A stretch of 64,000 nucleotides of DNA from a virus. This document shows positions 56 to 62,225 of the stretch, one piece after another. Under the pieces are notes generated by a model that saw nothing but the letters and a program-made list of their open reading frames with translations, was not told the origin of the DNA and made no database searches. The stretch is from the IMG/VR virus record IMGVR_UViG_3300043465_002420. One strand, given 5' to 3'. A program made the position numbers and the translations under genes. The first letter of the stretch is position 1; each line of letters opens with the position of its first letter.

Positions 56-556
56 TCATGATTTTTCCTCAAAGTTTCTTTTAGTAATGTCTCCTGTAAG
101 AACCAATGGATCTCCATTACTATTATTAGCAAGTGTCATGTAAAAATATTTTCTTTCTTTGTTAGGAACTTCTAACTTTCTCCATATCTTTGAAACATAA
201 TTGTGAAAATCTTCTTGATTAGATATATCTGCAATAACAAATTGATTTCCATTATGGCGAGTAATTACAACTTGTCTTCCAAAGACTGGCTTTGGCAAGT
301 CTTGCAATTCTGGATAATCTTTTTCTAATAGTTCTTTAATTTTCTTTTTAAATTCTTGCATTTCGCTAGGATCTATTAATGTTATGTGAGGGTTGCTTAT
401 TTCTGTTGCACCTTCTGGTAATGATTCTATTGGTGGATTTTTAGTCTTGTAAACTAATCCATTAGAGCTATCCAATACACTTACAGCCCTTTTACGATTA
501 GGATGCATAAAGACATTATCGAAATTTTCATTAAACCAATTTTTAAAGCTTTTCAT
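56..556 (-). CDS. 2H phosphoesterase-like protein with capsid-targeting-like N-terminus (second HxT motif degenerate)
   Basis: Start re-called at ATG 556 (MKSFKNWFNE). Motif 1 is PHITLI; the motif 2 position reads YFYMTLAN, followed by GDP...GDI. Confidence 0.5.
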   Translation of the reverse strand: MKSFKNWFNENFDNVFMHPNRKRAVSVLDSSNGLVYKTKNPPIESLPEGATEISNPHITLIDPSEMQEFKKKIKELLEKDYPELQDLPKPVFGRQVVITRHNGNQFVIADISNQEDFHNYVSKIWRKLEVPNKERKYFYMTLANNSNGDPLVLTGDITKRNFEEKS

Positions 557-612
557 AATTTTATATATTGTTTTGATCATATATAAAATCAAATATTAAG
601 AAGGGAAAAATT

Positions 613-1785
613 ATGAATTTTAAACAATGGTTTTTTAACGAAATGGAGATAGCCACATTAGATAAAGAGAAAATTTATCCTTATGGGTCTTCCGATGAAA
701 TAAAATTGGGTCAGCCAAAAAGCAGTAAAGTAAGTGGTTTTTGTCTACACAATCCAGAAATAAATGCATTTGCTCAAAAAAATTCAACAAATATGTTTAT
801 AGTTTTTGCATTTGTTTTTTACACAATTCAAAAAGAGTGGCAGATAGTTCATCAAACATTTCCAGATTTTTTAAAATGGGTTTTTGAAGATGCGATACAT
901 AAAACAAAAAAAAATAAGATAAATGCTTGGGATTATGCTGGCCAATCGTTTGCAAAACAGGCAAATCTACTTGGTTCCAAAAAAGGAGAAAGTAAGGCGA
1001 GATATCTCGAAGAATTATGGGAAAAAAAAGATACTATTTATAATGGTATAACATCGCTCATGAATAAAGGTGAATCTACTTCCTTATCAGATTCTTCTGA
1101 TTTTAAAATTTTCGAGTATATTGTAGACAACATAAAAGGACTTGCTGCTGTAAAAGCTGCTTTTGCAACTCAATTAATCATAGGAAAATATGGATGTGTA
1201 GATTCTGTTAATATGAGAGCGTATGACAAAATGATTCGTGCCGATATAGAAAAAGACCCAAAAAAATCTGGCTTTAGTTTAACCACTAAAAAAAGTAAGA
1301 CCAAAAAAGACGCTCTTGGTAATTTTGTAAATATAACCGACAAAAAAGGTAATACCGTCACTGATACAAATGTAAAAACAAGTGGTATTGGTTTGAAAGG
1401 ATATGTTAGTTTTCTTGATGCCTTGCAAGACTTATATGGCGATAGCATTTCTAAAATCATGTGGGATGATTGGTGCAAAATAGTAAATGACAAAATTATA
1501 AAATCTAATGACATTGGCGATTCAAATAAAATAAAATTAAATGTTAATGATCAAGAATTTAAAATAAACCCATACAAAGTAAAAAGCAATACAAGAGACA
1601 TGATTGACAAAGAAAAGGGATTTTTGCAAAAAGTAGATCCAGAAGGTACAGGTTCTGGAATTAGTTTGGCCCATTTGCAATCAATCAAAGCTGGAGAAAA
1701 GTATGGAGAAAAATTCGATATTGCAAAAGTATTGGAAAAAATTAAGATTTTAAAAGAATATATATTATCACAAAACATTCTATAA
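613..1785 (+). CDS. Hypothetical protein with HhH-GPD glycosylase-like motif and capsid-targeting-like N-terminus
   Basis: 390 aa; starts MNFKQWFFNE; IVDNIKGLAAVKAA...GCVDSVNMR resembles a helix-hairpin-helix plus conserved Asp. Confidence 0.35.
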   Translation: MNFKQWFFNEMEIATLDKEKIYPYGSSDEIKLGQPKSSKVSGFCLHNPEINAFAQKNSTNMFIVFAFVFYTIQKEWQIVHQTFPDFLKWVFEDAIHKTKKNKINAWDYAGQSFAKQANLLGSKKGESKARYLEELWEKKDTIYNGITSLMNKGESTSLSDSSDFKIFEYIVDNIKGLAAVKAAFATQLIIGKYGCVDSVNMRAYDKMIRADIEKDPKKSGFSLTTKKSKTKKDALGNFVNITDKKGNTVTDTNVKTSGIGLKGYVSFLDALQDLYGDSISKIMWDDWCKIVNDKIIKSNDIGDSNKIKLNVNDQEFKINPYKVKSNTRDMIDKEKGFLQKVDPEGTGSGISLAHLQSIKAGEKYGEKFDIAKVLEKIKILKEYILSQNIL

Positions 1786-1797
1786 AAAGGAAAAGTC

Positions 1798-2202
1798 ATG
1801 AGTCAATATTTTAATCAAAAACCTATCAGTGAAGCGACATGGTGGGCAAGTGTGATGGATCAACTTGGAAATGTAAGCAAAAATCCTAATTTGTACGAAG
1901 ATATGGACGCACCAGCACCATCACCATCACAATCACCAGAAGATGAAATGAAAATAGGTCATGGTTTAGACAGAAAGTTAAAAATATTTTTAGATGGATT
2001 AGATAAAACTGATTTAACTAGAGCAAATTTAAAAAACTTGGCAAAAACCTTGATAAACTCATTACACAAAGCAATGGTAGATGATGAAGGAATTCAAGAT
2101 TCAAGTGCAAGAACTATGCTTATGAAAGAAATTAAAGCAGCTTTTCAAGAAGTTCCAGAAGAAGAATCAGCAGAAGAAGGTCAAGAATTTAAAGGACAAT
2201 AA
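1798..2202 (+). CDS. Hypothetical acidic protein
   Basis: 134 aa ORF, AGGA SD, co-oriented with neighbours. Confidence 0.6.
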   Translation: MSQYFNQKPISEATWWASVMDQLGNVSKNPNLYEDMDAPAPSPSQSPEDEMKIGHGLDRKLKIFLDGLDKTDLTRANLKNLAKTLINSLHKAMVDDEGIQDSSARTMLMKEIKAAFQEVPEEESAEEGQEFKGQ

Positions 2203-2210
2203 CCTCAACG

Positions 2211-2573
2211 ATGATATCATTTATCAAAAATCTATTCGGACTTAGGTCTAGTATCAGAAATCTATTCGATCTTAGATCCGGTAGGTGGAATGGTCGTAGA
2301 AAAAAATGGCTGACAGAAAATGATAGTTGTATAGCTTGTGGAAAAAAAAGTTCACTTCATGTACACCATAAGATTCCGGTTCATATTGATGAAAGTAAAG
2401 AGCTTATTGAAGATAATCTATGTACTTTGTGTGCAACATGTCATTTTGTTTTTGGCCATTCGCACAACTGGTCACTTTATAACCCTTTTGTAATAGAAGA
2501 TTGTGAAAATCATTTAAAAAGGGTAAAAGAAAATCAAAAAATTAATCAATCCTTGCAAAAAAAACAATATTAA
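2211..2573 (+). CDS. HNH endonuclease
   Basis: CIACG..LHVHHKIP...NLCTLCATCH motif. Confidence 0.85.
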   Translation: MISFIKNLFGLRSSIRNLFDLRSGRWNGRRKKWLTENDSCIACGKKSSLHVHHKIPVHIDESKELIEDNLCTLCATCHFVFGHSHNWSLYNPFVIEDCENHLKRVKENQKINQSLQKKQY

Positions 2574-2587
2574 AATCAGTGAACTAA

Positions 2588-3688
2588 ATGCGTCATAAAA
2601 ATTTAAAAAATCAAGTAAAAATACAAGAGGCATTAGCGAAAAAAGCTAATAATCCATATCTTCGTATAATCCCAGAAAATGCAAAGATATTTCAGAAAAA
2701 TAAAAAAATAGAAATTCATAATAATGTAAGAAATAAAAAATCTATTTTTACAAATTTAGAATCACAAAATCAGAATTTCAAAAGAGAAAAAGAAATTCAA
2801 TTCTTAACAACCATACCATCTAAAATGGTAAGGCTTGATTTGCCAGAAGCTGGTAGCTTTAATGCGGGAATATTAGATTTAGGCAATAAAATATTATGCG
2901 TTTATAGATCAAATGAATATGAATTCGTAGCTTGTTTTTTAAATTATGAATATAAAGTTATAAACAATTTTTATTATAAATTTAAAATGTATGGTGTTAC
3001 CGATCCAAGAATAATTAGAACTCCTGATAATAAAGTTCTAATGTCTTATTCAATGAAATTTGACAATTGTAATGCTGAAAGTATTGCAGGAACAATTATA
3101 ATGGATCTAAGTAAATCAGATACTGAAATTTTTGAAGCTGAAACAATTAGGATAAGCCCAAAAGAAATTGTAAGAAGGCAAAAAAATTGGATGCCTTTTG
3201 TTCATGAAAAAAAATTATACTTTATTGCAAACATACATCCACATGAGATTTATGAAGTCCACACAGGAAGCATCATAAAATCAGAAAAAAAATATGTAAC
3301 ATCATTTAAAAATAAATGGTTTATGCAGACTGAATTGAGAGGTAATACAAATGCAGTTATCTTGCCAGATGGCAATTATTTGACAACATTTCACACAGTT
3401 GCAAGAAACAAAAATTTACATTATTATGATAATGGTTTTTATATTTTTGAAGGCAAGCCACCATTTGTAGTGACGCATATGTCTGAAAAAACATATTTAA
3501 AAGCAGAAGATGCTACAGAACCTCATTATAGAAAATCTGGTCTTATACTGTGTACATTTCCAATTGGAATGATCCTTAAAGATAACAAAGTCATTATAAG
3601 TTATGGCGACAATGATTCTTGTGTAAAAATACTTGAATCATCCTTAGATGATGTCATGAGCATGATGGTTAAGGTAAACGACAAATAA
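2588..3688 (+). CDS. GH130/DUF377-like five-bladed beta-propeller glycosidase or phosphorylase
   Basis: FNAGI, TDPRI, QKNWMPF, LRGNTNAV, FPIGMI, ISYGDND motifs; basic N-terminal extension. Confidence 0.65.
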   Translation: MRHKNLKNQVKIQEALAKKANNPYLRIIPENAKIFQKNKKIEIHNNVRNKKSIFTNLESQNQNFKREKEIQFLTTIPSKMVRLDLPEAGSFNAGILDLGNKILCVYRSNEYEFVACFLNYEYKVINNFYYKFKMYGVTDPRIIRTPDNKVLMSYSMKFDNCNAESIAGTIIMDLSKSDTEIFEAETIRISPKEIVRRQKNWMPFVHEKKLYFIANIHPHEIYEVHTGSIIKSEKKYVTSFKNKWFMQTELRGNTNAVILPDGNYLTTFHTVARNKNLHYYDNGFYIFEGKPPFVVTHMSEKTYLKAEDATEPHYRKSGLILCTFPIGMILKDNKVIISYGDNDSCVKILESSLDDVMSMMVKVNDK

Positions 3689-3699
3689 ATCAAAAATTT

Positions 3700-5395: not shown

Positions 5396-5495
5396 AATAA
5401 CTTATTTATGTAGGCTAATCAAAAAAATATAATTTTTAAAAAACAAAAAAATATGATACAATAATGATAACTAATTCTTAATTGGGCAATAAAGG

Positions 5496-6167
5496 ATGTC
5501 CTTCCAAATTTATAAAAATTTGGTAAATCAAGCAACAATGACATTTTCTGAATTTATTAAAAATGAACACAAAAAAATTCTTGGTTGGTGCGATGAAGAT
5601 AAGGCACAAAAATTTTACGATATCATTACAGAATCTAAGGCAAAATTATGTGTAGAAATTGGAGTTTTTGGAGGTTCGTCTTTAATTCCACAAGCTCTTG
5701 CGATGAAAGATAATAATGATGGAATCGTAGTTGGTATCGATCCTTGGACACATGATGCTGCATTAGAAGACATGGAAAAAGATGAGAATAAAGAATGGTG
5801 GTCAAAAATAAATCTAGATGAAATTTATAAAAATTTTACTAGCCAATTAAAATTTTATAAAGTGGATTCATTTTGTAAAATCTATAGAGATAAATCAGAA
5901 AATGTAATAAATGAATTTAAAGATGAATCTATTGATATTTTACACATTGATGGAAATCACTGCGAAAAACTTGCCTATCAAGACTCTGTAAGTTATTTTC
6001 CAAAGGTTAAAAAAGGTGGATACATATTCTTTGATGATACATCTTGGAGTGAAAACGGAAAAAATATATCAACAGAAAAAGGTTTAAATTATTTATTGCA
6101 ATATTGTGAAAAGGAATGTATTGTTGGAAAAGATTGTGTAATCTTAAAAAAAAATAATTACAGATAA
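5496..6167 (+). CDS. Class I SAM-dependent methyltransferase (Methyltransf_24-like)
   Basis: VEIGVFGGSS, IDILHIDGNH, GGYIFFDD. Confidence 0.9.
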   Translation: MSFQIYKNLVNQATMTFSEFIKNEHKKILGWCDEDKAQKFYDIITESKAKLCVEIGVFGGSSLIPQALAMKDNNDGIVVGIDPWTHDAALEDMEKDENKEWWSKINLDEIYKNFTSQLKFYKVDSFCKIYRDKSENVINEFKDESIDILHIDGNHCEKLAYQDSVSYFPKVKKGGYIFFDDTSWSENGKNISTEKGLNYLLQYCEKECIVGKDCVILKKNNYR

Positions 6168-6187
6168 GATTTTTTTGCGTTGAACAT

Positions 6188-6523: not shown

Positions 6524-6829
6524 TTATTTGCTATTCCAAGCAGCATGACTTTCTTCTCTTCTTTTTTTCAATTCAATATCAATATAACTATTTATTTGTC
6601 GATATAAAGGCAAAGATTTGCAAGCAAGCATTAATGGAATTGTTAATTTTTCTATTTTGACTTTATCGTTTTTCAATTTAGCTTGGACATAATCCTGCAA
6701 AATAGTTACTGGCACATTTTTAAATTGTGCTATAGTTTTGTTGATAAATTCATCATCCATAGCCCTAATTGGGTTCACATGTGGTGCAAAGTCAAACAAT
6801 CCTTCAAGATACTGATAAAAAGTTTTCAT
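6524..6829 (-). CDS. Hypothetical protein with capsid-targeting-like N-terminus
   Basis: MKTFYQYLE; GAGG SD upstream. Confidence 0.7.
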   Translation of the reverse strand: MKTFYQYLEGLFDFAPHVNPIRAMDDEFINKTIAQFKNVPVTILQDYVQAKLKNDKVKIEKLTIPLMLACKSLPLYRQINSYIDIELKKRREESHAAWNSK

Positions 6830-6903
6830 TATGTTATCCTCGTTTAAATATATATAATATTTTTAACAAAAGATTTAAATCGTTTGACGCTAAATTATTG
6901 AAT

Positions 6904-7371
6904 ATGAATAAAAATTATTGGTCAATTGAATTGTTGCATCCATACTCGCCATCTTACGAGGATGTAAATACATATAAAGACAATAGAAAAAAAGGAACTA
7001 CACTTTTACTTGGATGCACTCATAAATTGTTACCATTGAGCGACTTTCAGATGGACATAGATCCTTGGTATGAAGCACCTACTGTAATTGTCAAAGATTG
7101 GGTCGATAATGATAATTTCTACAACAATATGATTGGCGATGGAGTTTTGAACTTTACTAAAGATTTGACAGAAAAAATCATTAAAATGTCTCAAAGATAT
7201 ACTGAGGCTTTAATTGTTAGATCTTTCAATAAGAAATTGCCAAATATGAAAATCGCAAATTATTTCCCAACAGAAAACGACTTCGCATTGAAACCAAGTA
7301 AAATCTTAAAACATCAAGATTACAACTTTTTTATATGGAATTTTAAAAATGAATCAAATGGAAGAATCTGA
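6904..7371 (+). CDS. Hypothetical protein
   Basis: Start re-called at ATG 6904 to avoid overlapping the divergent gene; overlaps the start of the next gene. Confidence 0.55.
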   Translation: MNKNYWSIELLHPYSPSYEDVNTYKDNRKKGTTLLLGCTHKLLPLSDFQMDIDPWYEAPTVIVKDWVDNDNFYNNMIGDGVLNFTKDLTEKIIKMSQRYTEALIVRSFNKKLPNMKIANYFPTENDFALKPSKILKHQDYNFFIWNFKNESNGRI

Positions 7372-8383: not shown

Positions 8384-8961
8384 AAAATTTTGAAGAATTA
8401 TGGGATTACATTAAAGAAGACAATTTGATGGGCTATGAGAAAAGTAAAAATCTTTACGATGAATTGAAAACTACTAAAAATTTAAATGGAAACACAGCAG
8501 AAGTAGGAGTATACAAGGGAAAAACTTCAAAATTAATACATTTATTCCATGAAGATAAAAATCATTATTGTTACGATACCTTTGAAGGTGTAGCTCTTTC
8601 AGACTCTAATATAGATTTTCATAAAAATGGAGATTTTAATTGTTCGATAGAAAAAACGAAAGATTTCCTCGGAACCGATAATGTCATATATAAAAAAGGA
8701 ATTTTCCCTTTTACTTTCAAAGAAGAAAAAGAAAAATTTATTTTTGTCCACAGTGATACTGATACTTATGCTGGGGCAAAAGCAACATTAGATTGCTTTT
8801 CTAAAATCATTGTTCATAATGGTATAATTTTATTTGATGATTATCATTTTAAAGGCATTGAAAAAGCAATTTATGAATTTTTTCTAAAGAACAAAAATTT
8901 TTCATTTAAACAATCTCAATATCAATGCGTTCTTACCAATAAAAATATAAAATTGATTTAA
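8380..8961 (+). CDS. TylF/MycF-family O-methyltransferase
   Basis: AEVGVYKGKT, YDTFEG, KGIFPFT, FVHSDTDTY, ILFDDY. Confidence 0.85.
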   Translation: MKNFEELWDYIKEDNLMGYEKSKNLYDELKTTKNLNGNTAEVGVYKGKTSKLIHLFHEDKNHYCYDTFEGVALSDSNIDFHKNGDFNCSIEKTKDFLGTDNVIYKKGIFPFTFKEEKEKFIFVHSDTDTYAGAKATLDCFSKIIVHNGIILFDDYHFKGIEKAIYEFFLKNKNFSFKQSQYQCVLTNKNIKLI

Positions 8962-8991
8962 CAAATCGATGAAAATTGATATAATAATATC

Positions 8992-11544: not shown

Positions 11545-12468
11545 TTAAGACAATTCTTTTATTACATTTGTAAAATCGGCCAAAGGTATTTGATCTGGTG
11601 TTGTTACTGTTGATGAAATCCTATGTTTGTCCAACAGTGACAATTTTAAAAATGAAGACTTCCTTTTTTCTATAGTATTCTTAAATGCAGAAAAGAAATT
11701 AGGCACAACAAAATAAGCCTTTGCAAAATCTAATCTTTTATTTTTTGAGATGAAATAAAACTTGACGACCACAAATTCATCTTCCATTTTTACACCAGTT
11801 GGAACTATAACAAATGGTTTTTTGGGAAAATCTTTGTCTATCATTCCAGTATGTGCAATTTTAGATGGATCTAAAGTTATGTATTTTTTTACAAAATTGT
11901 TTTGTAACAAAGGTAGACTTTTCAAAAATCTTTGAATAACCCTTTTGGTTTCCTTTGCTTCTCCAGCTATTGTATCCCAATCTTTTAAAGCTTTTTCTGA
12001 TTTTTCTTTATTTTTCATTCTGTCAAAAAGATCTTTTCTAAGAAATAAGCCATATTGAACTATCGGATACATGTCTTTCATATATCTATCGTAAAATCTT
12101 TTATACATAACTTCCATATTTGGATCAGAAGACAAGAAAGAAATAAGTTCTGGTTTAAATTGATTTACAAAAGCCAATACTATCTTAACCAAGCTTGAAT
12201 AAACGGCAGATGGGTTTCTACTTTTATTAGTAAGATTATAACCGCCATAAGGATCTGTAAGATTGACATCATAACACTTCATATTTGGAAAGCCAGTTCT
12301 ACTCTTTTCAGTAAAAAAGATAGTATGTTTGCCATCATCAGAAACAAAATCTGATTTATAGCCACTTTCTCCACTTCTAGACATATAAGTATCAAATTTA
12401 ACGGAAGATGTATCAGCTTTAAATGGGTCTTCTAATTCATTTATAATTATCCAATTTTTAAATCTCAT
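11545..12468 (-). CDS. Hypothetical protein, paralog family A, capsid-targeting-like N-terminus
   Basis: MRFKNWIIINE; shares NPxxVY...P...MYxRFY with 21491-22108 and 22542-23300. Confidence 0.7.
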   Translation of the reverse strand: MRFKNWIIINELEDPFKADTSSVKFDTYMSRSGESGYKSDFVSDDGKHTIFFTEKSRTGFPNMKCYDVNLTDPYGGYNLTNKSRNPSAVYSSLVKIVLAFVNQFKPELISFLSSDPNMEVMYKRFYDRYMKDMYPIVQYGLFLRKDLFDRMKNKEKSEKALKDWDTIAGEAKETKRVIQRFLKSLPLLQNNFVKKYITLDPSKIAHTGMIDKDFPKKPFVIVPTGVKMEDEFVVVKFYFISKNKRLDFAKAYFVVPNFFSAFKNTIEKRKSSFLKLSLLDKHRISSTVTTPDQIPLADFTNVIKELS

Positions 12469-12534: not shown

Positions 12535-14115
12535 ATGAATACATTTTCTGAATTTTTTATAGCACAACAAAAAAATGATGTGACATTTTTTCTAGAAAGT
12601 AATCATCAACAATTTGAAGATTCCAAAGAACTTTTCTATAACATGATTTGTAAATTTGGAAATGATCCAATCATATTAGAAGCATGGGGCGATTGGTGGA
12701 ATAAAGCCAAGGAATATGCTGGAAAGGCATGGAATTGGGCCAATAATAAAGATATGAGTTTACAGGATATTGCCACAGGAACTGGGAATTTGGCAAAAGG
12801 TGTGGTTACTGGATACAAACAAGGTTATAAAGCCACAGAAGGCGAAGCTGGAATAAAGAAAATAGAAAGTATTGCAAAAGAAGTATCAGAATTAGCAAAA
12901 TCTTTTTCACAAAAATATAAAGTCGATCCAGTAACAGCAGCGGTTCTTATTTCTGCTGGTGCTACTGGTGGTCTTGGTGCAATTCCAATGATGGCAATAG
13001 CAATAGGATTAAGAAGAAGTGGATCATGGTTAGCCGATAAAGGATTTGAGAAAGTTTGGGAAAAATTAACTGGTACGACTGTAGATCAAGCTGATGCTGC
13101 ATGGCAAGGAAGCTCTGCCTCTGCTCCAAAGATGGCAAGCCCTGCTTCTTCTCCAAAGATGGCAGATCCTGCTGGAACATTTAATGTAATGAACCCCTCA
13201 GCAAATTCCGCATCAATTAAAGATCATTTTCAAAATTCTGGAAATCTTACATTTGAACAATACATCATGTCTAGAGATCCAGAAATGTACATGGAATTAA
13301 CAAGTTGGTTAAAACAACTTGTTGGTAAAGGTGCAAAGAAAGCTGGTGAATTTGCTGGTAATGTTGCACAAGGAGCAAAGGATTATGCAAAAGATGTCGG
13401 AGAAAGAGGATTTGGAACTGCAACTGGAGAAAGGGCTGGAAGAGTTTTGGGAAAAGGTGCTGGAACTTTTGTAAACATTTGGAGCGTACTTAAAAAGAGT
13501 ATTGCAAATGTTGGTAAGTTTATGGCCAACAATCCAGTTAAAACATCTAAATTGGTATTGGCTATTGCTGCTGGAAGTATGATTGGTCATTATGGAACAC
13601 AAGCAATCAATAATTTCATTCATAAGCCTTCATCTGACCAAATAGGAGAAATTACAAAAGCCGCTAAAGACTCTGGTGTTTCTGATACTGACATAAATGA
13701 TATTCATAAAGATACTGGATATTCTGGTAAAGGTGGAGATTTCAGTAATGCTATTGGTGCAAAAATTAGTTATGGCAATGCAGTCGCACAAGCCAAAGCA
13801 GATATCGTTCAAAGCATTAGAGATGGAAATATTACAGATTATGAAACTTTACAAAAAGCAATTAAAGATGCACATAATAAATTTTTCCCACTATTAGATC
13901 CTATTGGAAAAAGAGTTTTTGACAGTAAATTAGATATGCATATCACAAGCTTGGCTGGCAATGGTGCTACAGGAAATGCTGCCGAATTAACAATGAAAAT
14001 CATTAAAAATGCTGGTGGAACTCCAAATATCGAAGCCCTTTCAAATATGGGGCAAGCAATAAACAAAATTAAATCGTCATTAAATACTGATCAGATTGGT
14101 ATTGACAACTATTAA
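12535..14115 (+). CDS. Large Gly/Ala-rich protein (candidate internal head or ejection protein)
   Basis: 526 aa; MNTFSEFF start, a second internal TFEQY motif, two hydrophobic GA-rich segments. Confidence 0.65.
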   Translation: MNTFSEFFIAQQKNDVTFFLESNHQQFEDSKELFYNMICKFGNDPIILEAWGDWWNKAKEYAGKAWNWANNKDMSLQDIATGTGNLAKGVVTGYKQGYKATEGEAGIKKIESIAKEVSELAKSFSQKYKVDPVTAAVLISAGATGGLGAIPMMAIAIGLRRSGSWLADKGFEKVWEKLTGTTVDQADAAWQGSSASAPKMASPASSPKMADPAGTFNVMNPSANSASIKDHFQNSGNLTFEQYIMSRDPEMYMELTSWLKQLVGKGAKKAGEFAGNVAQGAKDYAKDVGERGFGTATGERAGRVLGKGAGTFVNIWSVLKKSIANVGKFMANNPVKTSKLVLAIAAGSMIGHYGTQAINNFIHKPSSDQIGEITKAAKDSGVSDTDINDIHKDTGYSGKGGDFSNAIGAKISYGNAVAQAKADIVQSIRDGNITDYETLQKAIKDAHNKFFPLLDPIGKRVFDSKLDMHITSLAGNGATGNAAELTMKIIKNAGGTPNIEALSNMGQAINKIKSSLNTDQIGIDNY

Positions 14116-20458: not shown

Positions 20459-21496
20459 ATGAAATACATAACACACATAGGTCGCAAATTTTTAAGGAAT
20501 GGTGGTGCTGAAATCCTTTTAAGAAGCATTTCATCACATGAGATGTTTCAAGGCGATTTGCAATTCAGACAAAGTTTATGCATCGATAGAAATTTTTATG
20601 ATAAAGAATTTTGCGAAACATTTCCTCATCCTGTATATCTTGGTGGAAAAAACGAAATAACTAAAGCAATTGAAAATGAAGATATAATTTTATTTTGGGG
20701 AGACATCCAATTAAATAATCTAGATATTCCAAAACCAAAAGTTTGCATATTGTTCGTGTGCAGCGAAGAGCCTAATATAGTTTCCAATAATTCAAGCTAT
20801 ATTACACATTGCATTGCGACATCAAAGAGAACGGCACTTAATTCGTGTGGCAATATACCATATACAGTAATTTACCCTGGATTTGATGAAATAAGACTAA
20901 CGCCAACAGAAACTAGAGATTCGCAAAGAAAAAAAATGGGTCTTGGCGATGATGATTTTTTAGTTGGTATGATTTCAAGAATTGGAGAAAACAAAAGACA
21001 ATTTTGGCTTATGGAGGCAATTCAAAAAATAAATTCAGAAAAAATAAAAGCAGTTTTTGTTGGTGGAGGAAAAGATTTAAAAAAACTTAAAAATATGAAT
21101 GTAAGAAATTGTTTGTTTGTCGGTCATCAAGATGATGTTGCAAATTGGTATCTGGCCATGGATGCTTTTTGTATATTGTCAAGAAGTGAAGGAGGGCCAA
21201 CAACCTTATTCGAATCATCTTATATGAAAGTTCCGTTGATATATACAGATTGCGGATTTACAAAAGAATTGTGCAATAGTTACAATTCTTTCTTTGTAAG
21301 AGATGTTAAAGATTTAATAGAAGTTATAAAAATCATGCATTCATTAGGAAAAGAAAATTTAAAAAGATATACAAATAATAATTATAGCATATATGAAGAG
21401 TTTGGATCTATAGAAAAATCGGCCAAAAATTGGTACAAAACAATTAAAGATGTAGTGGCAAAAAAAGAAAGGGAAAATTGCAGATTACTTTCATAA
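20459..21496 (+). CDS. Glycosyltransferase family 4
   Basis: GMISRIGENK, FVGHQDDV, MDAFCILSRSEGGPTTLFES (EX7E). Confidence 0.9.
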   Translation: MKYITHIGRKFLRNGGAEILLRSISSHEMFQGDLQFRQSLCIDRNFYDKEFCETFPHPVYLGGKNEITKAIENEDIILFWGDIQLNNLDIPKPKVCILFVCSEEPNIVSNNSSYITHCIATSKRTALNSCGNIPYTVIYPGFDEIRLTPTETRDSQRKKMGLGDDDFLVGMISRIGENKRQFWLMEAIQKINSEKIKAVFVGGGKDLKKLKNMNVRNCLFVGHQDDVANWYLAMDAFCILSRSEGGPTTLFESSYMKVPLIYTDCGFTKELCNSYNSFFVRDVKDLIEVIKIMHSLGKENLKRYTNNNYSIYEEFGSIEKSAKNWYKTIKDVVAKKERENCRLLS

Positions 21497-22108
21497 TCCA
21501 ATTCTTTTTATTCTTTTTAAATTTTTAATGTTAGAAGAACTTTTTTCATAATCTTGTTTGATCAGATCCATAAATTTTTCTTTTAAATTTTCTGGTATAG
21601 ACATTAAAATCTTATCAATTAATTTATAATCGATGTAAAAAGTTCCTAACTTTACAAGTCCAAACTCACTAGAAAACCTTTTGTAAAAATCATGATACAT
21701 AATTTTCAAAGATGCAAATTCAGTGCTAAATTCTAAAGCAACAGGATTTTCCTTGTCTATTACAGTCTTTATTGACTTCAAGGCTTCTGAATATACTTTA
21801 TATGGATTCATGCTTTTTCCACTAGGAGAAAGTTCATCTTTAGCACCTTCTAATGTCATAAAAACAACATAGGTTGGTCTTGTTAATTCGTCTTTAAATT
21901 TGTTTTCATATTTGAATAAGTCTGGCATTTTTTGGAATAGAAAGTCTTTGACTCCTCTTGGATGCCTTATAAAATTCATTTTATATTTTTCATTTTCAGA
22001 AGCATAGAAATGGTAGTCGTATTGCCATTTACTTCCTTGCAATGCCACTGGCTTGAAATCTGATAAAACAGACCGCAATTCATTTATATATTGATAAAAC
22101 GATTTCAT
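21491..22108 (-). CDS. Hypothetical protein, paralog family A, capsid-targeting-like N-terminus
   Basis: Start re-called at MKSFYQYINE; NPYKVY...NP...MYHDFYKRF. Confidence 0.7.
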   Translation of the reverse strand: MKSFYQYINELRSVLSDFKPVALQGSKWQYDYHFYASENEKYKMNFIRHPRGVKDFLFQKMPDLFKYENKFKDELTRPTYVVFMTLEGAKDELSPSGKSMNPYKVYSEALKSIKTVIDKENPVALEFSTEFASLKIMYHDFYKRFSSEFGLVKLGTFYIDYKLIDKILMSIPENLKEKFMDLIKQDYEKSSSNIKNLKRIKRIGL

Positions 22109-22150: not shown

Positions 22151-22540
22151 ATGAAAAGTATTAATGAATTTAAGGCAAGCGGAAAAATTAAAGACTTAGT
22201 TTATAAATTATTTGAAGCAAGACAAGTCTCTCATACTGCTCATTTACAAACAAAAAGTTATGCCGAACATAAAGCTTTAAATTCTTTTTACAACGACCTA
22301 CTTGATTTAGCAGATACATTCATTGAAACATACCAAGGCCAATATGGAATTATTAGTGGGTATGAAAGCATGAGTATTGAAAAAGAATCAGATATTGTCA
22401 AATACCTTGAAGATTTTGCCAATGTAATCAAATCGAATAGAAAAAACTTAAATGAAGATGACACTCATTTGCATAATATACTTGATGAGATTATGGGTTT
22501 GACTTTTCAAACTATTTACAAATTAAAATTTCTAAAATAA
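22151..22540 (+). CDS. Ferritin/Dps-like four-helix-bundle protein (phage DUF5856-like)
   Basis: HTAHLQTKSYAEHKALNSFYNDL..LADTFIETYQG...LHNILDEI; GAGG SD. Confidence 0.8.
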   Translation: MKSINEFKASGKIKDLVYKLFEARQVSHTAHLQTKSYAEHKALNSFYNDLLDLADTFIETYQGQYGIISGYESMSIEKESDIVKYLEDFANVIKSNRKNLNEDDTHLHNILDEIMGLTFQTIYKLKFLK

Positions 22541-22541: not shown

Positions 22542-23300
22542 TTATGATATTGAAGATGCTTTATTTTTATGAGACATTTTAAATTTTCTTATTTTAGAAA
22601 CATAAGATTTCTTTTCTAAATCTACATCTTGTATTATTTTAATGAGTTTATCTGGTAAAGATTGATCTATTTTTCTTGAATCTCTTATTATGCTATCAAT
22701 TTTTTCTTTCTTTATATAAAAGTCAGATCCAACAAAAGCGTATTGGGTGTGAAGATAATGTTTGTAAAATCTATCATATATTGATATTAAGCTTGGGTCT
22801 TGATCACTGGGAGATATCCAAAACGCATCAGGATTCTTTTCCTCGATAACCTTTCTGGTTGCAACAATCACATTGGCATATACAAATAATGGATCGCTTT
22901 CTTCAAATTTACCAAATTTTGGAGTAAAATTACTTTTTTCGCTATATAAATCTAATTTGAAAATTGATTTTAGATTATTTAAAAATATATCAATAATTTT
23001 TTTACCTAAATCAGAATTCTTATCGATTGAAAGTTTTGCGAGAAATATCTTAGCAATTTCAGCCGATAATCTTCTGCCGAAATTTTCAAATTGAACTTCA
23101 TAATTGTCAGAATGCTCAATATCATATTCTTTTGATTTAAATTGATATCCAAAACCAGTACCAAAATTAGACAACTTGACAGAATTAAGTGGTGCTTGCA
23201 TCGCTGGATATGTTTTCCCAGTTATGGGATCAGTCCAATTAAACGAAACTTCTTGCAACAAATCTTCAATAAGGTAATTTTTAAAATTCAATTTGAACAT
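22542..23300 (-). CDS. Hypothetical protein, paralog family A, capsid-targeting-like N-terminus
   Basis: MFKLNFKNYLIE; DPLFVY...NP...IYDRFYKHY. Confidence 0.7.
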   Translation of the reverse strand: MFKLNFKNYLIEDLLQEVSFNWTDPITGKTYPAMQAPLNSVKLSNFGTGFGYQFKSKEYDIEHSDNYEVQFENFGRRLSAEIAKIFLAKLSIDKNSDLGKKIIDIFLNNLKSIFKLDLYSEKSNFTPKFGKFEESDPLFVYANVIVATRKVIEEKNPDAFWISPSDQDPSLISIYDRFYKHYLHTQYAFVGSDFYIKKEKIDSIIRDSRKIDQSLPDKLIKIIQDVDLEKKSYVSKIRKFKMSHKNKASSIS

Positions 23301-23303
23301 ACA

Positions 23304-23828
23304 TTATTTATCTAATATTTTGTATTTTTCTTGCAAATAAGCAAGCAATTCTTTTTGTTCTTCATCCAAAGTCTTATTTTTGTCGAAAAGTATTTCATAT
23401 CTTTTCTGCATTTCTTGGAATGTTTCTCTTTTTTTCTTAATTGGAAATTCAGTTTTATAGTATTGGATATCATCTGCTATATCAATGGAATCTAAAAAGG
23501 CACTATAATCTACGGCAAAACCTATTCTTTTTTCAGAATATTTAAGAACTTTCATATCAACATTTTTAGTTGGTATCTTTCTAATTTCTGCAATAGTGTA
23601 TTTAATTTCATTAGTTGCAATTGATGGTTTTGAATTTGTCTTTTTATTGAATTCATGGATCAAATCATTGAATTTAATCCAATAATTTTTAGTTGAAACC
23701 TCAACAGCAATAGGGTTTTCAATTTTATCTTGCGACAACAATAGAAATATAACTGAAAATAAAGAACACATAATAATTCTCCTTGAGTTTGTTTTCATAA
23801 GAATAATTTGATTTGTTTCATTTGTCAA
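23304..23828 (-). CDS. Hypothetical protein with N-terminal signal or TM segment
   Basis: 174 aa ORF with hydrophobic N-terminus. Confidence 0.55.
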   Translation of the reverse strand: MTNETNQIILMKTNSRRIIMCSLFSVIFLLLSQDKIENPIAVEVSTKNYWIKFNDLIHEFNKKTNSKPSIATNEIKYTIAEIRKIPTKNVDMKVLKYSEKRIGFAVDYSAFLDSIDIADDIQYYKTEFPIKKKRETFQEMQKRYEILFDKNKTLDEEQKELLAYLQEKYKILDK

Positions 23829-28593: not shown

Positions 28594-28725
28594 AAGGTAA
28601 AAAGATTTGTCCGAAACTCAACCTGATCTTTTACCCTTACATATAGTTGTTCGTTGTTGCTGCCAATTTATTTCAAGAAATTTATCCTAATGATAAAAAT
28701 TTTTGACAAATTGATTTTAAAAACT

Positions 28726-28733
28726 TATAAATA
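28726..28733 (+). promoter_or_regulatory. T4-type late promoter TATAAATA
   Basis: Exact T4 late consensus, 5 nt before ATG 28739, no SD. Confidence 0.6.
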
Positions 28734-28738
28734 AAGCC

Positions 28739-38880: not shown

Positions 38881-40134
38881 TCAAACCTTTTTAATTAACA
38901 TTTCATCAATTGTAATTGAATTAGAGTCATTGTCGGAAGCGTTGAACATTATGTCGCTCATGAAATTTTCCACAACCGACCTTAAAGCTCTTGCCCCTGT
39001 TCCCTTTTTAAAAGCCACATTTGCAATTTCTTTTATTGCTCCATCGGTAAATTTCAAATCAATATCATCATAAAAAAATAATTTTTGATATTGTTTTAAA
39101 ATTGAATTTTTAGGTTCAGTCAAAATTGAAATTAAATGGCTTTCAGTCATATGATCCAAAGCAACTTGTATTGGCAATCTTCCTACGAATTCAGGAATCA
39201 TTCCATATTGTATAAAATCTTCATCAGTGACGCTTTTAAGAATTTCATGATCTGAATTTTCAACACCTGTTGAATTTACAAATCCAATTTTACTTTTTCC
39301 AATTCTTCTTCTGATTGTATCTTCAATACCAACAAAAGTTCCGCCACATATAAAAAGTATGTTTGATGTATCGACTTGTATAAAATGTTGCTCTGGATGC
39401 TTTCTTCCTCCTTGGGGCGGAACATTACAAACTGTTCCCTCTATTATTTTAAGAAGTGATTGCTGAACTCCTTCTCCACTCACATCTCTTGTTATCGACA
39501 TATTCTTTGATGTTTTGGCTATTTTGTCTATCTCATCGATGTAAATAATTCCCATTTGTGCCTTATCAACATCATAATTTGTTTCACGAAGAAGTTTAAC
39601 TATAAGATTTTCAACATCTTCTCCAACATATCCAGCTTGGGTAAGGACTGTGGCATCTCCGATAGCAAATGGAACTCCAAGAAATTTGGCCAAGGTTTTT
39701 GCGAGTAATGTTTTTCCACAACCTGTCGGCCCTAAAAATAAGATGTTGGATTTTTCTATCGTTACATCTTGAAGTTTTTTTGGAATTTTCGATTGATTGG
39801 TCTTATCGTTTATGCGTTTATAATGGTTACAAACAGCAATTGCCAACAGTTTTTTTGCTCGATCTTGACCTATAACATGTTGATCTAAAAATTCGACAAC
39901 CTTTTTAGGACTAATCTTTTCAGAAAATTGAATTTCTTTTTTTAATTTTGATGACTTTTTAAAATCATCGGGGTTTGCAGTGGACAAAGATACATGCATT
40001 AAATTTATACAATTCGAACAAATGTAAGCCCTATCACCTTTTTTTCTTCCATTTCTCGGCCTTGCCAATGATGCACCCTCAATAATAACAGCATCATTCT
40101 TTTCGCAAAACTCACAATAAAAAACTTTAGACAT
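38881..40134 (-). CDS. clpX: ATP-dependent Clp protease ATP-binding subunit ClpX
   Basis: N-terminal C4 zinc finger; GPTGCGKT; [11 protein letters not shown]; DEIDK; [10 protein letters not shown]; GGRKHP; IGF loop; GARALR. Confidence 0.97.
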
Positions 40135-49338: not shown

Positions 49339-49365
49339 ATATTATTTATGCATGAAACAAAAAAA

Positions 49366-54837: not shown

Positions 54838-54850
54838 TAAGCCTCAAAGG

Positions 54851-56693: not shown

Positions 56694-56695
56694 TT

Positions 56696-58544: not shown

Positions 58545-58822
58545 TATTGATCCAGATCCACCAACCCATTTTGTTGCCTACTTCTTCTTAAAACCTCATT
58601 AAGTTCTTCTTCATATTTTTGATCCCAATTTTTCGTCAGAGGAACATCTGCTTCTGCGTTTTGTAAAGAATTTTCTGTTTGCCCTAATACATTTAAAACA
58701 TCAATAAAAAAACCCTTTTGCTCTTCTCTCAATCTGACCAAAAAGCTACTAAGATAAAATAAAATTATCGTATTTAAAATAAGAAAAAACAAAACGATTA
58801 TATCAAAAATTAAATTTTGCAT
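58544..58822 (-). CDS. Single-TM hypothetical protein
   Basis: Start re-called at MQNLIFD. Confidence 0.6.
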   Translation of the reverse strand: MQNLIFDIIVLFFLILNTIILFYLSSFLVRLREEQKGFFIDVLNVLGQTENSLQNAEADVPLTKNWDQKYEEELNEVLRRSRQQNGLVDLDQ

Positions 58823-58827
58823 TTTTT

Positions 58828-60960
58828 TTACAAATAAAACTGTGTTGGTGCCTGTGGTCTGATTGAAGTAATATCGATTACCGAAACATCTAACAATGTA
58901 AGTTTCTCTAAAATTCTGCAATTAAGAGTGTTGGCATCCCAGTATGTTCCATTAAACAAACCTATACTATCATATATTGTAAAATTATCAACAACAACAT
59001 TAAAATTATTTATTACGAAATTATCTCTAAAATGAACATTAATAGTAAAATCAAGACCATACGAACTTGCACTAACACATATATCCTCTGATGGAAAATA
59101 GGCTAAAATTCTACTATCGACATCGTCACCAGTTACAAGATTTGTCTTGTTTACATACAATGAAAATTTCCAAAGATTAGAACTTAGTTCATTTTCTCCA
59201 AAATAATTAACACAAGACCACTCAATGTTAATCTGCCATTTTTCGGCAACATTTGTACTTCCTATGCCTGTAAAAGAAAATGATCTCTGCCAAGATTCTG
59301 TTCTTGCACTGTAAAACATTTCAATGTTTTCACTTAATGAAAATCCATTGTTATCTAAAAATTTCTTTAGTACCGTGGCCTTGTCAAAATTATGCTTTAA
59401 ATAAAGTAATTTTGGAATTGCATCACACAAACCACACGCTGTATTAATTGTTTCGGATATCGGAATCATTACTTGATCCACAGATTCTGAAAAACTTACT
59501 TCAAAATTACTAATTTCTACAGCCATACCCATACCAATATTATCTGCAAAGAATAATGATGATGCAATAGTTCCAGAAAGATCAATTATTCCGCTTCCTT
59601 TATATTTATAGCCTGACAAAAATGACAAAGAAGATTCCTCTAGCAATATTGGAGATAATATTGTTGTGTACCAGAAATCTCCCAAAGAAGAATCTCTAGC
59701 CTCGCCTGTTCCATCAATCAAAATGAAACCAGAATCTGCTTCATAGGCATACGAAGCGACCTTTACAAATATGGAACCACCTACTGTAATTGCTCCATCA
59801 GATTCATAATAAAAATATGGCGACACAATTGAAGCGGTGCCAAAAATAAAAGCATTGCCTTCTGCATAGTTCCAAATATATGGCGTACCTGAAATGGATA
59901 TCCCACTAACTAAAACTACACCATTAGCATTTTGCAATATGGGATATTCTGCTTCCCCATAAATAATTATCCCAGCATAAGTCGGATATGTATCGCTTTT
60001 TCCAGTAGAAACAAAACTTAATTTGAATCGCACCAAAGCATCATTAGAAACAACGATACTTCCCGATCCATTATATCTCCAACTAGGACTTATAATTTCT
60101 GGATTGCCTCCTACAATTATATTTCCACTTCCTTCAAATGTTCGATACGAATACACAAGTTCAGATTCCCCATAAATTAAAGAATCTCCAGATCCAATGT
60201 AGCCGAAGTAATTATTTGAAAATTCTGCCGAACCAGACAATAAAATTATTCCAGACCCAACATACGAAGATGTTAATTTGACACTTCCGCCAATTACAAT
60301 ACCTCCAGTGGCAGCAAAAACATTCATTTTAAGTACACTTGTAGAAACTCCCATTTTCACTGTTGGTGTTGGTAAAACGGTAAATTGTAAACATTGTGGT
60401 ATTTGAGAAAATGGAACAGGTTCAAAGCATTGAGATGTTGGAACAAATTCGCCATTTGTTGCTATGCCAGTAGATCCAATTGCAAAAAAAGATTCAATTG
60501 GATGAACAGATCTTTCTATGGTTTCAATTGGCCAAGTCCAATTAACATCGCTTAGAAATTGACAAACTTCTTGCAAATTTCTTGCAATTAGTTCTTGAAA
60601 CATTCTATTTAAACCATTTGGTATTCCACAAAATGGTATATAATCAGAATTATAATATTGACGACCAGTAACTCTGAATGTTCTTAATGGCAATTCGCCA
60701 ACATTATAAGAAAAATCATAAGATGCTTCAAACGATTGATTAATATCGTATGAGAAACTATATAAAAAATCTATATTAAAATTATATAATGAAGATGTAG
60801 TATTTGTAGCATTTATAAATCCATCCGATACATATTTTGGACGACAAACACAAATTGATGATCCATAAATAGTTAAATATCCTGAACCTTTATATGCATT
60901 AGATTCATCACCATCTCCATATATCGCAATGCCACCAGTAGCTTCGTAGTTATAGATCAT
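58828..60960 (-). CDS. Large repeat-containing beta-rich protein (candidate virion structural protein)
   Basis: 710 aa; about 12 imperfect YxGSGxIxxxG repeats; Cys-containing inserts. Confidence 0.6.
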   Translation of the reverse strand: MIYNYEATGGIAIYGDGDESNAYKGSGYLTIYGSSICVCRPKYVSDGFINATNTTSSLYNFNIDFLYSFSYDINQSFEASYDFSYNVGELPLRTFRVTGRQYYNSDYIPFCGIPNGLNRMFQELIARNLQEVCQFLSDVNWTWPIETIERSVHPIESFFAIGSTGIATNGEFVPTSQCFEPVPFSQIPQCLQFTVLPTPTVKMGVSTSVLKMNVFAATGGIVIGGSVKLTSSYVGSGIILLSGSAEFSNNYFGYIGSGDSLIYGESELVYSYRTFEGSGNIIVGGNPEIISPSWRYNGSGSIVVSNDALVRFKLSFVSTGKSDTYPTYAGIIIYGEAEYPILQNANGVVLVSGISISGTPYIWNYAEGNAFIFGTASIVSPYFYYESDGAITVGGSIFVKVASYAYEADSGFILIDGTGEARDSSLGDFWYTTILSPILLEESSLSFLSGYKYKGSGIIDLSGTIASSLFFADNIGMGMAVEISNFEVSFSESVDQVMIPISETINTACGLCDAIPKLLYLKHNFDKATVLKKFLDNNGFSLSENIEMFYSARTESWQRSFSFTGIGSTNVAEKWQINIEWSCVNYFGENELSSNLWKFSLYVNKTNLVTGDDVDSRILAYFPSEDICVSASSYGLDFTINVHFRDNFVINNFNVVVDNFTIYDSIGLFNGTYWDANTLNCRILEKLTLLDVSVIDITSIRPQAPTQFYL

Positions 60961-61676
60961 TTCCTTACATTCATTTCTTCAAACTTATCTAATATTCCAG
61001 CAATCAAGGGATGTCTTACGATTGAGCAAGCCTTGAACCTTATGACAGCAACTCCCTTTAGTTCTTCCATTTTATTGGCTATTTCTAATAACGATGAATT
61101 GCCTCCATTTATATCACTTTGATCTGGGTCTCCCGTGATAATCATTTTGCTATTATGTCCAAATCTAGTCATAAATAGTTTAATTTGTGTTTTAGTTGCA
61201 TTTTGAGCTTCATCAAATATGCAAACAGAATCTTTAAAGGTTCTGCCACGGCAAAAAGCTATAGGTGCAATTTCCATTGATTTATTTATTATTTCTCTTT
61301 GTGGTCCGTCTTTGCCAAGACAAGTCTCCATACAGTCATACATTGGCATCATATAAGGATTTAACTTCTCTTCTATGCCTCCAGGCAAAAAACCAAGGCT
61401 TTCTCCAGCTTCAACAACTGGTCTGGTTAGAATTATTTTCTTTCTTTTTAATGCTAAGATTTCACTTATAGCAAAAGCACAAGATAATTGCGTCTTGCCA
61501 CATCCAGCAGGGCCAAGTAAAAATAAAACATCATGTTGATCAAAAGCACCCCAAGCCAATCTTTGAGCTTGATTCATGAATTCAAAATGAAAATTTTGAC
61601 TTGTAGAAGCGTGGTTTGGTTTTGGTATTTCTTGTTTTTTGTTTTTATAGACAACTTTTCTTTTTGATCTAGACAT
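60957..61676 (-). CDS. phoH: PhoH-family ATPase
   Basis: GPAGCGKT, TRPVVEAGESLGFLPG, RGRTF, DEAQN, GDPDQSD, VRHPL. Confidence 0.96.
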   Translation of the reverse strand: MSRSKRKVVYKNKKQEIPKPNHASTSQNFHFEFMNQAQRLAWGAFDQHDVLFLLGPAGCGKTQLSCAFAISEILALKRKKIILTRPVVEAGESLGFLPGGIEEKLNPYMMPMYDCMETCLGKDGPQREIINKSMEIAPIAFCRGRTFKDSVCIFDEAQNATKTQIKLFMTRFGHNSKMIITGDPDQSDINGGNSSLLEIANKMEELKGVAVIRFKACSIVRHPLIAGILDKFEEMNVRK

Positions 61677-61754
61677 TATTTGTTTCCTGATAAATAGTTA
61701 GTTTCTAACATATATATCAATTGAAATGACAAATAATCAGCATAAGGCAAATAT

Positions 61755-62225
61755 ATGTTAACCAATAATTTTAAATTATTTTTTGAAGAAAAAGAAATGG
61801 AAGATGTAAAGAAGCTTTTAAATAAGTTGCCTACAAGTCATAAAAAATTGATCCATGGATTCAAATTCAAATATACTGGTAATAATACTTTAAATGGCGA
61901 TAAAAAACATGTTGGTGTAATTTATGGAAAAAAAATTGAGGTCGCTGCCCCTTGGAATTACAGCAGAGAATTTACCACATTGCACGAAATAGCACATTTG
62001 ATTTGGTCTCATAAATTAACGCCTAAATTAAAAAAAGAATGGGCAAAACTTTTAAAATCAACAAAAAAAGAAATGAATAAAAAAGAAATTTCAAAATCTT
62101 CTTTAAATCAAGGTGCTGAAGAGATTTTTGCGATGAGTTATGCAAATTATTATTCAAAACATAAAATTTTGACATATAATCATCCAAAGTGGATGGATTT
62201 TATAAAAGAAAAAGTACCAGACTAA
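61755..62225 (+). CDS. Zincin metallopeptidase (lethal-factor-like HExxH...EExFA) with capsid-targeting-like N-terminus
   Basis: TLHEIAHL and EEIFAMSY; starts MLTNNFKLFFEE. Confidence 0.7.
   Translation: MLTNNFKLFFEEKEMEDVKKLLNKLPTSHKKLIHGFKFKYTGNNTLNGDKKHVGVIYGKKIEVAAPWNYSREFTTLHEIAHLIWSHKLTPKLKKEWAKLLKSTKKEMNKKEISKSSLNQGAEEIFAMSYANYYSKHKILTYNHPKWMDFIKEKVPD

Follow-up and report, generated by a model that had tools for sequence, protein, structure and literature searches.

Why do many proteins of one phage, most of them unrelated to each other, begin with almost the same few residues? The question is raised by a 64,000-nucleotide (nt) stretch of DNA of a huge, uncultured lake phage, below called the window, from the IMG/VR virus record IMGVR_UViG_3300043465_002420. 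The initial annotation, made from the letters alone, quoted 16 such N-terminal peptides and saw in them a modular address label like the one that directs the internal proteins of phage T4 into the prohead. Our analysis leads to a similar reading. With a probability of roughly 0.6, the shared start (the tag) is a capsid targeting sequence (CTS) of the T4 type in diverged form, that is, a capsid-loading and protease-clipped leader placed on mostly unrelated cargo proteins. As about one fifth of the proteins are tagged in a manner resembling the T4 loading signal, the phage probably packs a large and fast-changing set of enzymes for delivery together with its DNA.

The window corresponds to positions 15543-79542, read on the reverse strand, of a linear record of 92,977 bp with about 30% G+C, which is designated G000 in the comparisons with relatives. 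Our own gene call gave 137 genes on this contig. With the addition of 6524-6829(-), which the gene caller skipped owing to an overlap with the far-upstream start of 6769-7371(+), the set comprised about 138 open reading frames (ORFs).

The tag and its enrichment

How many proteins carry the tag, and could chance have supplied them? The consensus start M-x(0-4)-F-[KS]-x-[WFY]-[LIF]-x(0-3)-E was found on 27 of the approximately 138 ORFs of the contig, i.e. on about 20% of its genes. Seventeen of the tagged ORFs lie in the window or touch it and 10 lie outside; 20 of the 27 are gathered in a 37-kb region that begins 13.4 kb beyond the left edge of the window and reaches its position 23,300. Together the tagged proteins account for 6,230 of the 28,843 predicted residues. 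Column counts over 26 tags gave Phe at position 0 in 24, Trp, Phe or Tyr at +3 in all 26 and Leu, Phe, Ile, Val or Met at +4 in 25, followed by Glu. Between the initial Met and the motif the spacing differs by 0-4 residues. A hydrophobic-x-Glu motif closes 22 of the 26 tags, ending at residues 8-15, and is missing from those at 5538, 12535, 22151 and 48691.

All 16 peptides of the initial annotation were recovered, with their starts and strands placed correctly, although the quoted forms of those at 23300, 49338 and 61755 lack the first one to three residues of the protein. Four of the 16 (22151, 48691, 12535 and 28739) are weak or doubtful members of the group.

A leave-one-out matrix with a threshold of at least 6 nats recognized 20 of the 26 tagged N-termini, as against 7 of 23,500 internal positions. 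A further test used a matrix that was trained on the 16 in-window tags alone and then applied to N-termini it had not seen. In the flanks of the contig 7 of 40 N-termini matched, where 0.3 were expected (Poisson p = 3e-8), and in a related contig, G007, 20 of 178 matched, where 0.73 were expected (p = 4e-22). The comparison with shuffled N-termini that the initial annotation had suggested also bore out the enrichment: with residues 2-30 shuffled in every protein the mean number of matches was 1.7 (maximum 8), against 22 in the real set. Chance, or the AT-rich composition of the DNA, is therefore ruled out as the source of the shared start by the internal-position and shuffling controls. The seven internal matches are scattered and none of them lies at a module joint, so a cargo polyprotein with internal tags can likewise be rejected.

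Are the proteins behind the tags really unrelated, as had been claimed? For the most part they are. BLASTP of the mature parts revealed two small paralog groups only, one made up of the proteins starting at 12468, 22108 and 23300 and the other of the protein at 12535 and an out-of-window protein of 281 amino acids (aa).

Four pairs of tagged or tag-like genes are arranged divergently, with their starts 42-72 bp apart (556/613, 12468/12535, 22108/22151 and L001 ~8543-8616), and their spacers are AT-rich and contain TATATA.

Selection on the tag peptide

If the tag is shared, at which level is it maintained? Selection acts on the tag peptide and not on its DNA. For the aromatic residue the codons TGG, TTT, TAT, TTC and TAC are used, ten different codons are in use at the hydrophobic position, and the usage of TTT/TTC and GAA/GAG within the tags equals the genome average. 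The same was seen among orthologs of the tagged CCA-adding enzyme, a protein with hundreds of homologs: they carry synonymous DNA differences inside the tag, and residues F3, W6, E10 and E11 are invariant in an alignment of 22 sequences that reaches down to 36% identity (mean column identity 58%). Tag-like starts are also present in the orthologs that relatives have of the C39 peptidase and of the 723-aa and 156-aa tagged proteins, and the tag is retained in orthologs at 30-40% identity.

The tag is a removable add-on outside the fold. Homologs of the C39 peptidase with 61-97% identity keep it, while the homolog P0136 (45% identity) is tagless and begins directly at the catalytic domain; more distant CCA enzymes likewise lack this tag. 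When the tagged CCA enzyme was modelled with AlphaFold2, the mean pLDDT (model confidence) came to 37 for residues 1-10 and to 86.5 overall, so the most conserved stretch of this enzyme is predicted to lie outside its fold. Such a stretch, conserved and unfolded, would be expected if another protein reads it as a linear signal.

A second type of leader was noticed in the distant phage CCA homologs P0096-P0115, which begin M-x-L-L-R-E-Y-I-R-E-x-(L/M)-x-E. It shares the skeleton of the tag, hydrophobic-x-x-aromatic-hydrophobic-x-Glu, which suggests that CTS-like leaders may be widespread in several dialects.

Comparison with T4 and other known systems

The CTS that T4's internal proteins carry is said to have been described by Mullaney and Black in 1996; it is taken off by the prohead protease gp21 (PMC9026906, PMC3012670, PMC5694885). 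The first 10 residues of internal protein IPIII are enough for packaging, residues 4 and 7 serving, according to mutagenesis, in targeting and residues 8 and 10 in processing (PMC9026906), and the prohead proteases of the T4 family cut after Glu (PMC5694885). In the T4 record AF158101 both IPII and IPIII begin MKTYQEFIAE, and IPI begins MKTFKEF. The conserved columns of the lake-phage tag correspond to T4 Y4, F7, I8 and E10 (aromatic, aromatic, hydrophobic, Glu). When the lake-phage matrix was run on the 269 T4 N-termini, IPII and IPIII ranked 7th and IPI 12th.

The best T4 match of the matrix was the hypothetical 54-aa gp61.1 (AF158101 18966-19130(-), locus L023), which begins MKTFKEFIKED and with 11.8 nats stands above IPI-III. 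This protein may be an unrecognized carrier of a CTS.

The two systems have much in common. Both use an N-terminal leader of about 10 residues on otherwise unrelated proteins, with aromatics three apart followed by hydrophobic-x-Glu (T4 M-K-T-Y-Q-E-F-I-A-E; here M-K-[ST]-F-x-x-[WFY]-[LIF]-x-E). The cargo genes of both vary between relatives, and the tag-bearing relatives encode proteins of the gp21, gp23 and gp20 types. They differ in that Phe and Trp are favoured here where T4 has Tyr and Phe, and in that one to three extra residues often precede the Glu. Further, the whole T4 genome has three or four carriers and this 93-kb fragment has 27; the T4 cargo is small, basic and DNA-binding, whereas here it consists largely of enzymes and reaches 723 aa. 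The T4 ip genes have sigma-70-like early promoters and ordinary leaders, in contrast to the tagged genes of the relatives, where TAAATA-N3-7-ATG without a Shine-Dalgarno site is often found.

T4 Alt, an ADP-ribosyltransferase, offers another parallel as a head-loaded enzyme that is delivered at infection and has a short N-terminal propeptide ending in hydrophobic-x-Glu. However, its leader is unlike the present tag, and no tagged protein here was identified as an ADP-ribosyltransferase.

Giant phages of the phiKZ, 201phi2-1 and SPN3US type also have many head-internal and ejected proteins (PMC5694885, PMC10052503). Their gp175/gp245-type proteases belong to a related family and cut after Glu, and their propeptides are thought to target proteins into the prohead. 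Their cleavage sites, however, are Ser/Ala-x-Glu and most of their propeptides span 100-250 residues and are particular to one protein (PMC10052503, PMC5694885); here 22 of 26 tags have a hydrophobic P3, and a leader of about 10 residues is common to all cargo. Moreover, about 80% of SPN3US head proteins are uncut (PMC5694885, PMC10052503). The hydrophobic P3 and the short shared leader rule out a phiKZ/SPN3US-type propeptide. A double-glycine leader of the C39-processed kind, which would end in Gly-Gly or Gly-Ala, was rejected as well: GG occurs within 30 residues in only 2 of 26 N-termini, at no fixed distance from the tag.

How would the tag work, if it is a CTS? The first 8-15 residues would form a short exposed leader. 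Its aromatics three apart (Phe, then Trp, Phe or Tyr) would bind the scaffolding core of the prohead, so that the carrier becomes enclosed in the head. The hydrophobic-x-Glu would be the site of a gp21-type prohead protease (Peptidase_S77), which would remove the leader and free the mature protein in the capsid. The cargo would then enter the host with the DNA, by analogy with Alt and the T4 internal proteins; the latter are ejected with the DNA (PMC3012670, PMC9026906), and this analogy is the basis for proposing injection here. Core binding, cleavage, virion residence and injection of the tagged proteins are all inferred.

That T4 has a CTS and that variable internal proteins of T-even phages use it was already established, and the CTS has been proposed as a possible general route by which T4-like phages load proteins (PMC9026906). 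Among papers that use the term 'capsid targeting sequence', none was found to describe such tags in metagenomic huge phages, and they are unmentioned by Iyer et al. 2021 on jumbo phages (PMC7824862). Compared with T4, the present system follows the same logic, probably with homologous machinery. Its consensus has diverged, its enzyme-rich cargo set is about ten times larger, and its tag is tied to a cassette-like start.

Head genes in relatives

Do phages with this tag also have the T4-type head machinery? A search with the CCA alignment located 80 IMG/VR loci, several of them with dense tag arrays. On the related contig G007 (136,667 bp; loci L111-L117) 21 genes are tagged, and a single array of 15 kb contains 16 of these. 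Its genes include matches to Peptidase_S77 (88.7 bits), Gp23 (293 bits) and Portal_T4 (253 bits). The G007 protease can be aligned with gp21 across the GELxHP and SSRGxG blocks, which contain the conserved His and Ser, and where a scaffold gene would be expected there is an acidic coiled-coil protein with 24 hydrophobic-x-Glu motifs. Peptidase_S77 was also detected in the relatives G005, G006, G009 (91% complete) and G002. The 595-kb uncultured phage LR756511, which has counterparts of 47 of the 137 contig proteins at a mean identity of 39%, combines Peptidase_S77 and a gp23 homolog with 33 tagged N-termini (1.75 expected), most of them of the form MKTF-x-[EQ]-W-L-E; its capsid protein is 81% identical to that of G007. 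In alignments, the capsid proteins of the relatives have hydrophobic-x-Glu where the propeptide of T4 gp23 ends.

Two details of these head genes were recorded in passing. The portal gene of G007, L111:12026-14533(-), contains an intein (Intein_splicing, 41 bits). LR756511 has a second, weak Peptidase_S77 match (34.8 bits, in a 304-aa frame) at 242621-242989 (locus L120), far from the head genes, which recalls the diverged protease paralog of SPN3US-like phages (PMC5694885).

The start cassette

The tag is associated with a DNA element at the gene start, TAAATA-N3-7-ATG. In G007 this element precedes 14 of 21 tagged and 2 of 157 untagged genes (Fisher p = 6e-14; e.g. L115:3588-18278). The corresponding figures are 9 of 33 and 25 of 1009 in LR756511 (Fisher p = 3e-7), and 5 of 25 and 2 of 112 in G000 (Fisher p = 0.002). 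Sites in the window are 23301-23315, 28724-28738 and 49339-49354. The tagged genes of G007 and LR756511 are depleted in Shine-Dalgarno sites, and about half of the tagged genes in G000 have ordinary Shine-Dalgarno sites and no TAAATA box.

The box resembles the T4 late promoter TATAAATA, which in T4 is found roughly 35 nt upstream of the genes alt, 18, 20, 22, 24, soc and e. With a late-promoter-like box at 3-7 nt from the ATG, the transcripts would be late and leaderless. Such transcripts would fit expression at the time of head assembly, and the box may also offer a shared joint for recombination. PeSL-type shuffling in the hyperplastic regions of T4-type phages uses a promoter and then a stem-loop at gene boundaries; here the boundary element is TAAATA-N3-7-ATG plus the tag codons. 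The two have in common a short conserved boundary sequence alongside rapid gain, loss and reordering of accessory genes.

Weighing the explanations

Could the cassette be the whole story, with the shared start being mainly a DNA device (TAAATA box, ATG and first codons) for leaderless expression and recombination, and the peptide having little function? The enrichment of the box, the scarcity of Shine-Dalgarno sites before tagged genes in G007 and LR756511, and the reshuffled neighbourhoods of close relatives would all be explained in this way. What is conserved, however, is the class of residue and not the bases, synonymous changes occur within tags, and F, W, E and E stay invariant in orthologs at 36% identity. 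In addition, about half of the tagged genes of G000 do without the box, and the distance from Met to motif is not fixed. A purely DNA-level element is thus contradicted by the codon variety and the ortholog invariance, and the T4 internal-protein genes show that a cassette and a functional peptide are compatible; we consider the cassette-only explanation very improbable. Somewhat greater, and still small, is the chance that the tag sends proteins elsewhere, to the cell envelope or secretion, to the tail or baseplate, or to an intracellular phage compartment. One tagged gene of G007, MSFINWVKNRDND (an AAA_33 kinase-like protein), does sit within a block of tail and baseplate genes, and some cargo enzymes, the C39 peptidase for example, might work outside the cytoplasm. 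However, the tag is short, acidic and devoid of a hydrophobic core, so it does not resemble the signals of the Sec or Tat pathways; a gene set for forming a nucleus was not seen; and the similarity to the T4 CTS together with the Glu cut motif indicates the head.

The tag might also be a leader for another phage partner, such as a modifying enzyme (as in systems like those of ribosomally synthesized and post-translationally modified peptides), a ligase or a ClpX-type unfoldase, and so mark its carriers for modification, unfolding or timed degradation. A ClpX-like ATPase is indeed encoded in the window at 38881-40134(-) (phrog_4339, 342 bits), with counterparts at 44-50% identity in LR756511 (50%), G001 and G002, and Iyer et al. 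2021 (PMC7824862) suggest that phage ClpX or BCS1 may move proteins while virions are assembled. It is conceivable that this ATPase has a role in unfolding or loading the cargo. Nevertheless, G002 has ClpX and almost no tags, T4 has a homologous tag and no ClpX, and G007, a fragment of 137 kb, has 21 tags and no ClpX match. A radical-SAM partner enzyme is ruled out, as Radical_SAM (PF04055) is absent from the tag-bearing DNA of G000, G007, G005 and the whole of the 595-kb LR756511, while all 14 control genomes score. A partner leader would also fail to account for the terminal hydrophobic-x-Glu and for the position-by-position agreement with the T4 CTS, and we regard it as unlikely.

The T4-type address label proposed at the outset is supported in part. 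It is favoured by the conserved positions, the hydrophobic-x-Glu at the end of most tags, the ranking of T4 proteins, the retention in orthologs and the head gene set of the relatives; what the contig itself does not provide is the head module. This and several other observations weigh against a capsid targeting role. No capsid, portal, scaffold or protease gene was found on the 92,977-bp contig (PF03420 absent), which CheckV estimates at 19% of the genome, so the link to a T4-type head rests on relatives whose proteins are on average about 39% identical. The 27 cargo species on 93 kb far exceed the handful of T4. The Alt leader, MELITELFDE, scores -3.6 with the matrix and ranks 185 of 269; therefore the resemblance is limited to the CTS of the internal-protein type. 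In relatives the tag comes closely linked with a DNA cassette, so recombination, and not function, could account for part of its spread. Moreover, G002 has the protease and only 3 matrix matches, and the cultured phage XacN1 has the protease and only weak tag-like starts, so a T4-type protease does not predict this tag. The XacN1 virion chitinase and lipase are tagless; virion proteomics of this phage has been published (PMC5852040).

Tagged genes of the window and their surroundings

The members of the group in the window are listed in Table 1.

Table 1. Tagged, weak and doubtful members of the group in the window (lengths in aa; P3, third position before the cut)
Feature	Position	Strand	N-terminus	Matrix score	Remarks
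Tagged ORF, 144 aa	1..59, runs past left edge of window	-	MNFKNWIESE	15.6	Residues 6-8 are Trp-Ile-Glu; leave-one-out score
Tagged ORF, 166 aa from tag Met	56..556	-	MKSFKNWFNE	12.2	Phe-Asn-Glu ends at residue 10
Tagged ORF, 390 aa	613..1785	+	MNFKQWFFNE	14.3	Phe-Asn-Glu ends at residue 10
Tagged methyltransferase, 209 aa	5538..6167	+	MTFSEFIKNE	12.1	Methyltransf_24, 65 bits
Tagged ORF, 101 aa	6524..6829	-	MKTFYQYLE	9.0	GAGGA before start; no Pfam match
Tagged ORF, 202 aa	10211..10819	+	MKSFHEYVE	5.5	Tyr-Val-Glu ends at residue 9
Tagged C39-family cysteine peptidase, 170 aa	10971..11483	-	MQFKNWLLQEE	12.1	Peptidase_C39, 66.7 bits, from residue 15
Tagged ORF, 307 aa	11545..12468	-	MRFKNWIIINE	10.0	Weak paralog of ORFs at 22108 and 23300
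Doubtful member, 526 aa	12535..14115	+	MNTFSEFFIAQQ	7.6	Aromatic pair; no Glu cut motif nearby
Tagged ORF, 205 aa	21491..22108	-	MKSFYQYINE	5.8	Ile-Asn-Glu ends at residue 10
Probable non-member, DUF5856 protein, 129 aa	22151..22540	+	MKSINEF	0.4	
Tagged ORF, 252 aa	22542..23300	-	MFKLNFKNYLIE	8.1	Leu-Ile-Glu ends at residue 12; TAAATA 4 nt before ATG
Borderline member, HAD-type phosphatase, 134 aa	28739..29143	+	MNIIHFFEWE	6.4, atypical	5-nucleotidase/HAD_PNKP matches; TATAAATA 5 nt before ATG
Weak member, 96 aa	48691..48981	+	MLTNFYEWMSFRQAVE	4.1	First Glu past pair is residue 16; Ala at P3
Tagged ORF, 118 aa	48982..49338	-	MKDFSFKNWFKINE	8.8	Ile-Asn-Glu ends at residue 14; CATAAATA 4 nt before ATG
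Tagged ORF, 138 aa	53452..53868	-	MKFSEWLELREE	14.2	DUF5872 below cut-off
Tagged ORF, 156 aa	61755..62225	+	MLTNNFKLFFEE	9.8	

Which functions stand behind the tags? The families recognized on tagged proteins are the CCA-adding enzyme, the C39 peptidase, Methyltransf_24 and, on a borderline tag, a HAD-type phosphatase. For the remaining proteins, about 20, no Pfam or PHROG family was recognized, and a PHROGs search with ten tagged proteins gave no match. From the cargo named in the initial annotation, the phosphatase and one protease (C39) can be kept; several proteases, a 2H protein and a ferritin were not confirmed. In a check for the '2H' signature, the 166-aa protein at 56-556 showed a single H-x-T-x motif (HITL), so the label is unsupported; this protein had no Pfam or PHROG match.

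Some further details concern individual members. The ORF at 613 is the divergent partner of the one starting at 556. The methyltransferase ORF at 5538 has a second Met upstream at 5496, and its cut motif is imperfect because P3 is Lys. For the 307-aa protein the ESM Atlas gave DUF6934 as the only lead, and for the 526-aa protein nothing usable; the latter has an untagged 522-aa paralog outside the window. A homolog search with the 205-aa protein returned near-identical copies only, and a protein identical to window 21494-22108 is encoded on a contig of 260,695 bp, which might carry the head genes of this phage. The start at 22151 is without a second aromatic, a hydrophobic pair or a Glu motif. 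The 156-aa protein has a homolog in LR756511, 41% identical, that begins MEGFRQFFEQTEE.

The tagged set changes quickly. In the relative L027 the CCA enzyme is 93% identical, yet its tagged neighbours are almost entirely different, which indicates fast turnover of the cargo; L027 also has a tagged copy of the 138-aa protein, 90.6% identical and in a different neighbourhood. The internal-protein loci of T-even phages are likewise variable (PMC3012670, PMC9026906).

Two side observations were made on gene starts. The long TTG/GTG-started reading of 6769-7371(+) covers the start of a tagged ORF, and a downstream Met (MNKNYWS...) is its more likely start. A second shared N-terminus, MS(H/Q)Y-x-NQ-x-x-I-(T/S)-E-x-x-WW, is found on 1798-2202(+) and on the untagged 522-aa paralog of the 526-aa protein, an ORF at window positions -12891..-11323 (L001).

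Other annotations of the window comprise a helicase, the ClpX-like ATPase, a sigma-factor-like protein, an amidoligase, glycosyltransferases, an AAA ATPase, a ParB-like protein, methyltransferases and an HNH endonuclease. The 92,977-bp contig has no tRNA genes. Searches of the INPHARED phage set with the window DNA and the helicase protein found no close relative, and we found no cultured member of the clade; the nearest cultured capsid protein is about 33-42% identical.

Significance

If the tag works as that of T4 does, a simple sequence rule would name the proteins carried in at the first moment of infection, when counter-defence matters most. About 20 proteins without a family here, and dozens in the genome of each relative, would become defined candidate early effectors. 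The three- or four-protein system of T4 would then be seen to scale to a large and fast-evolving arsenal, and new targeting tags would become available for loading foreign proteins into T4-type capsids.

A bolder and more tentative possibility is that the CTS has been turned into a plug-and-play cargo system of huge phages of the T4 superfamily, in which a TAAATA box, an ATG and ten tag codons would make any captured gene a late-expressed, loaded, released and injected effector. If this is true, the tag would be a computable label for the whole injected arsenal, i.e. for dozens of proteins, most of them of unknown fold, which differ even between relatives that are 93% identical.

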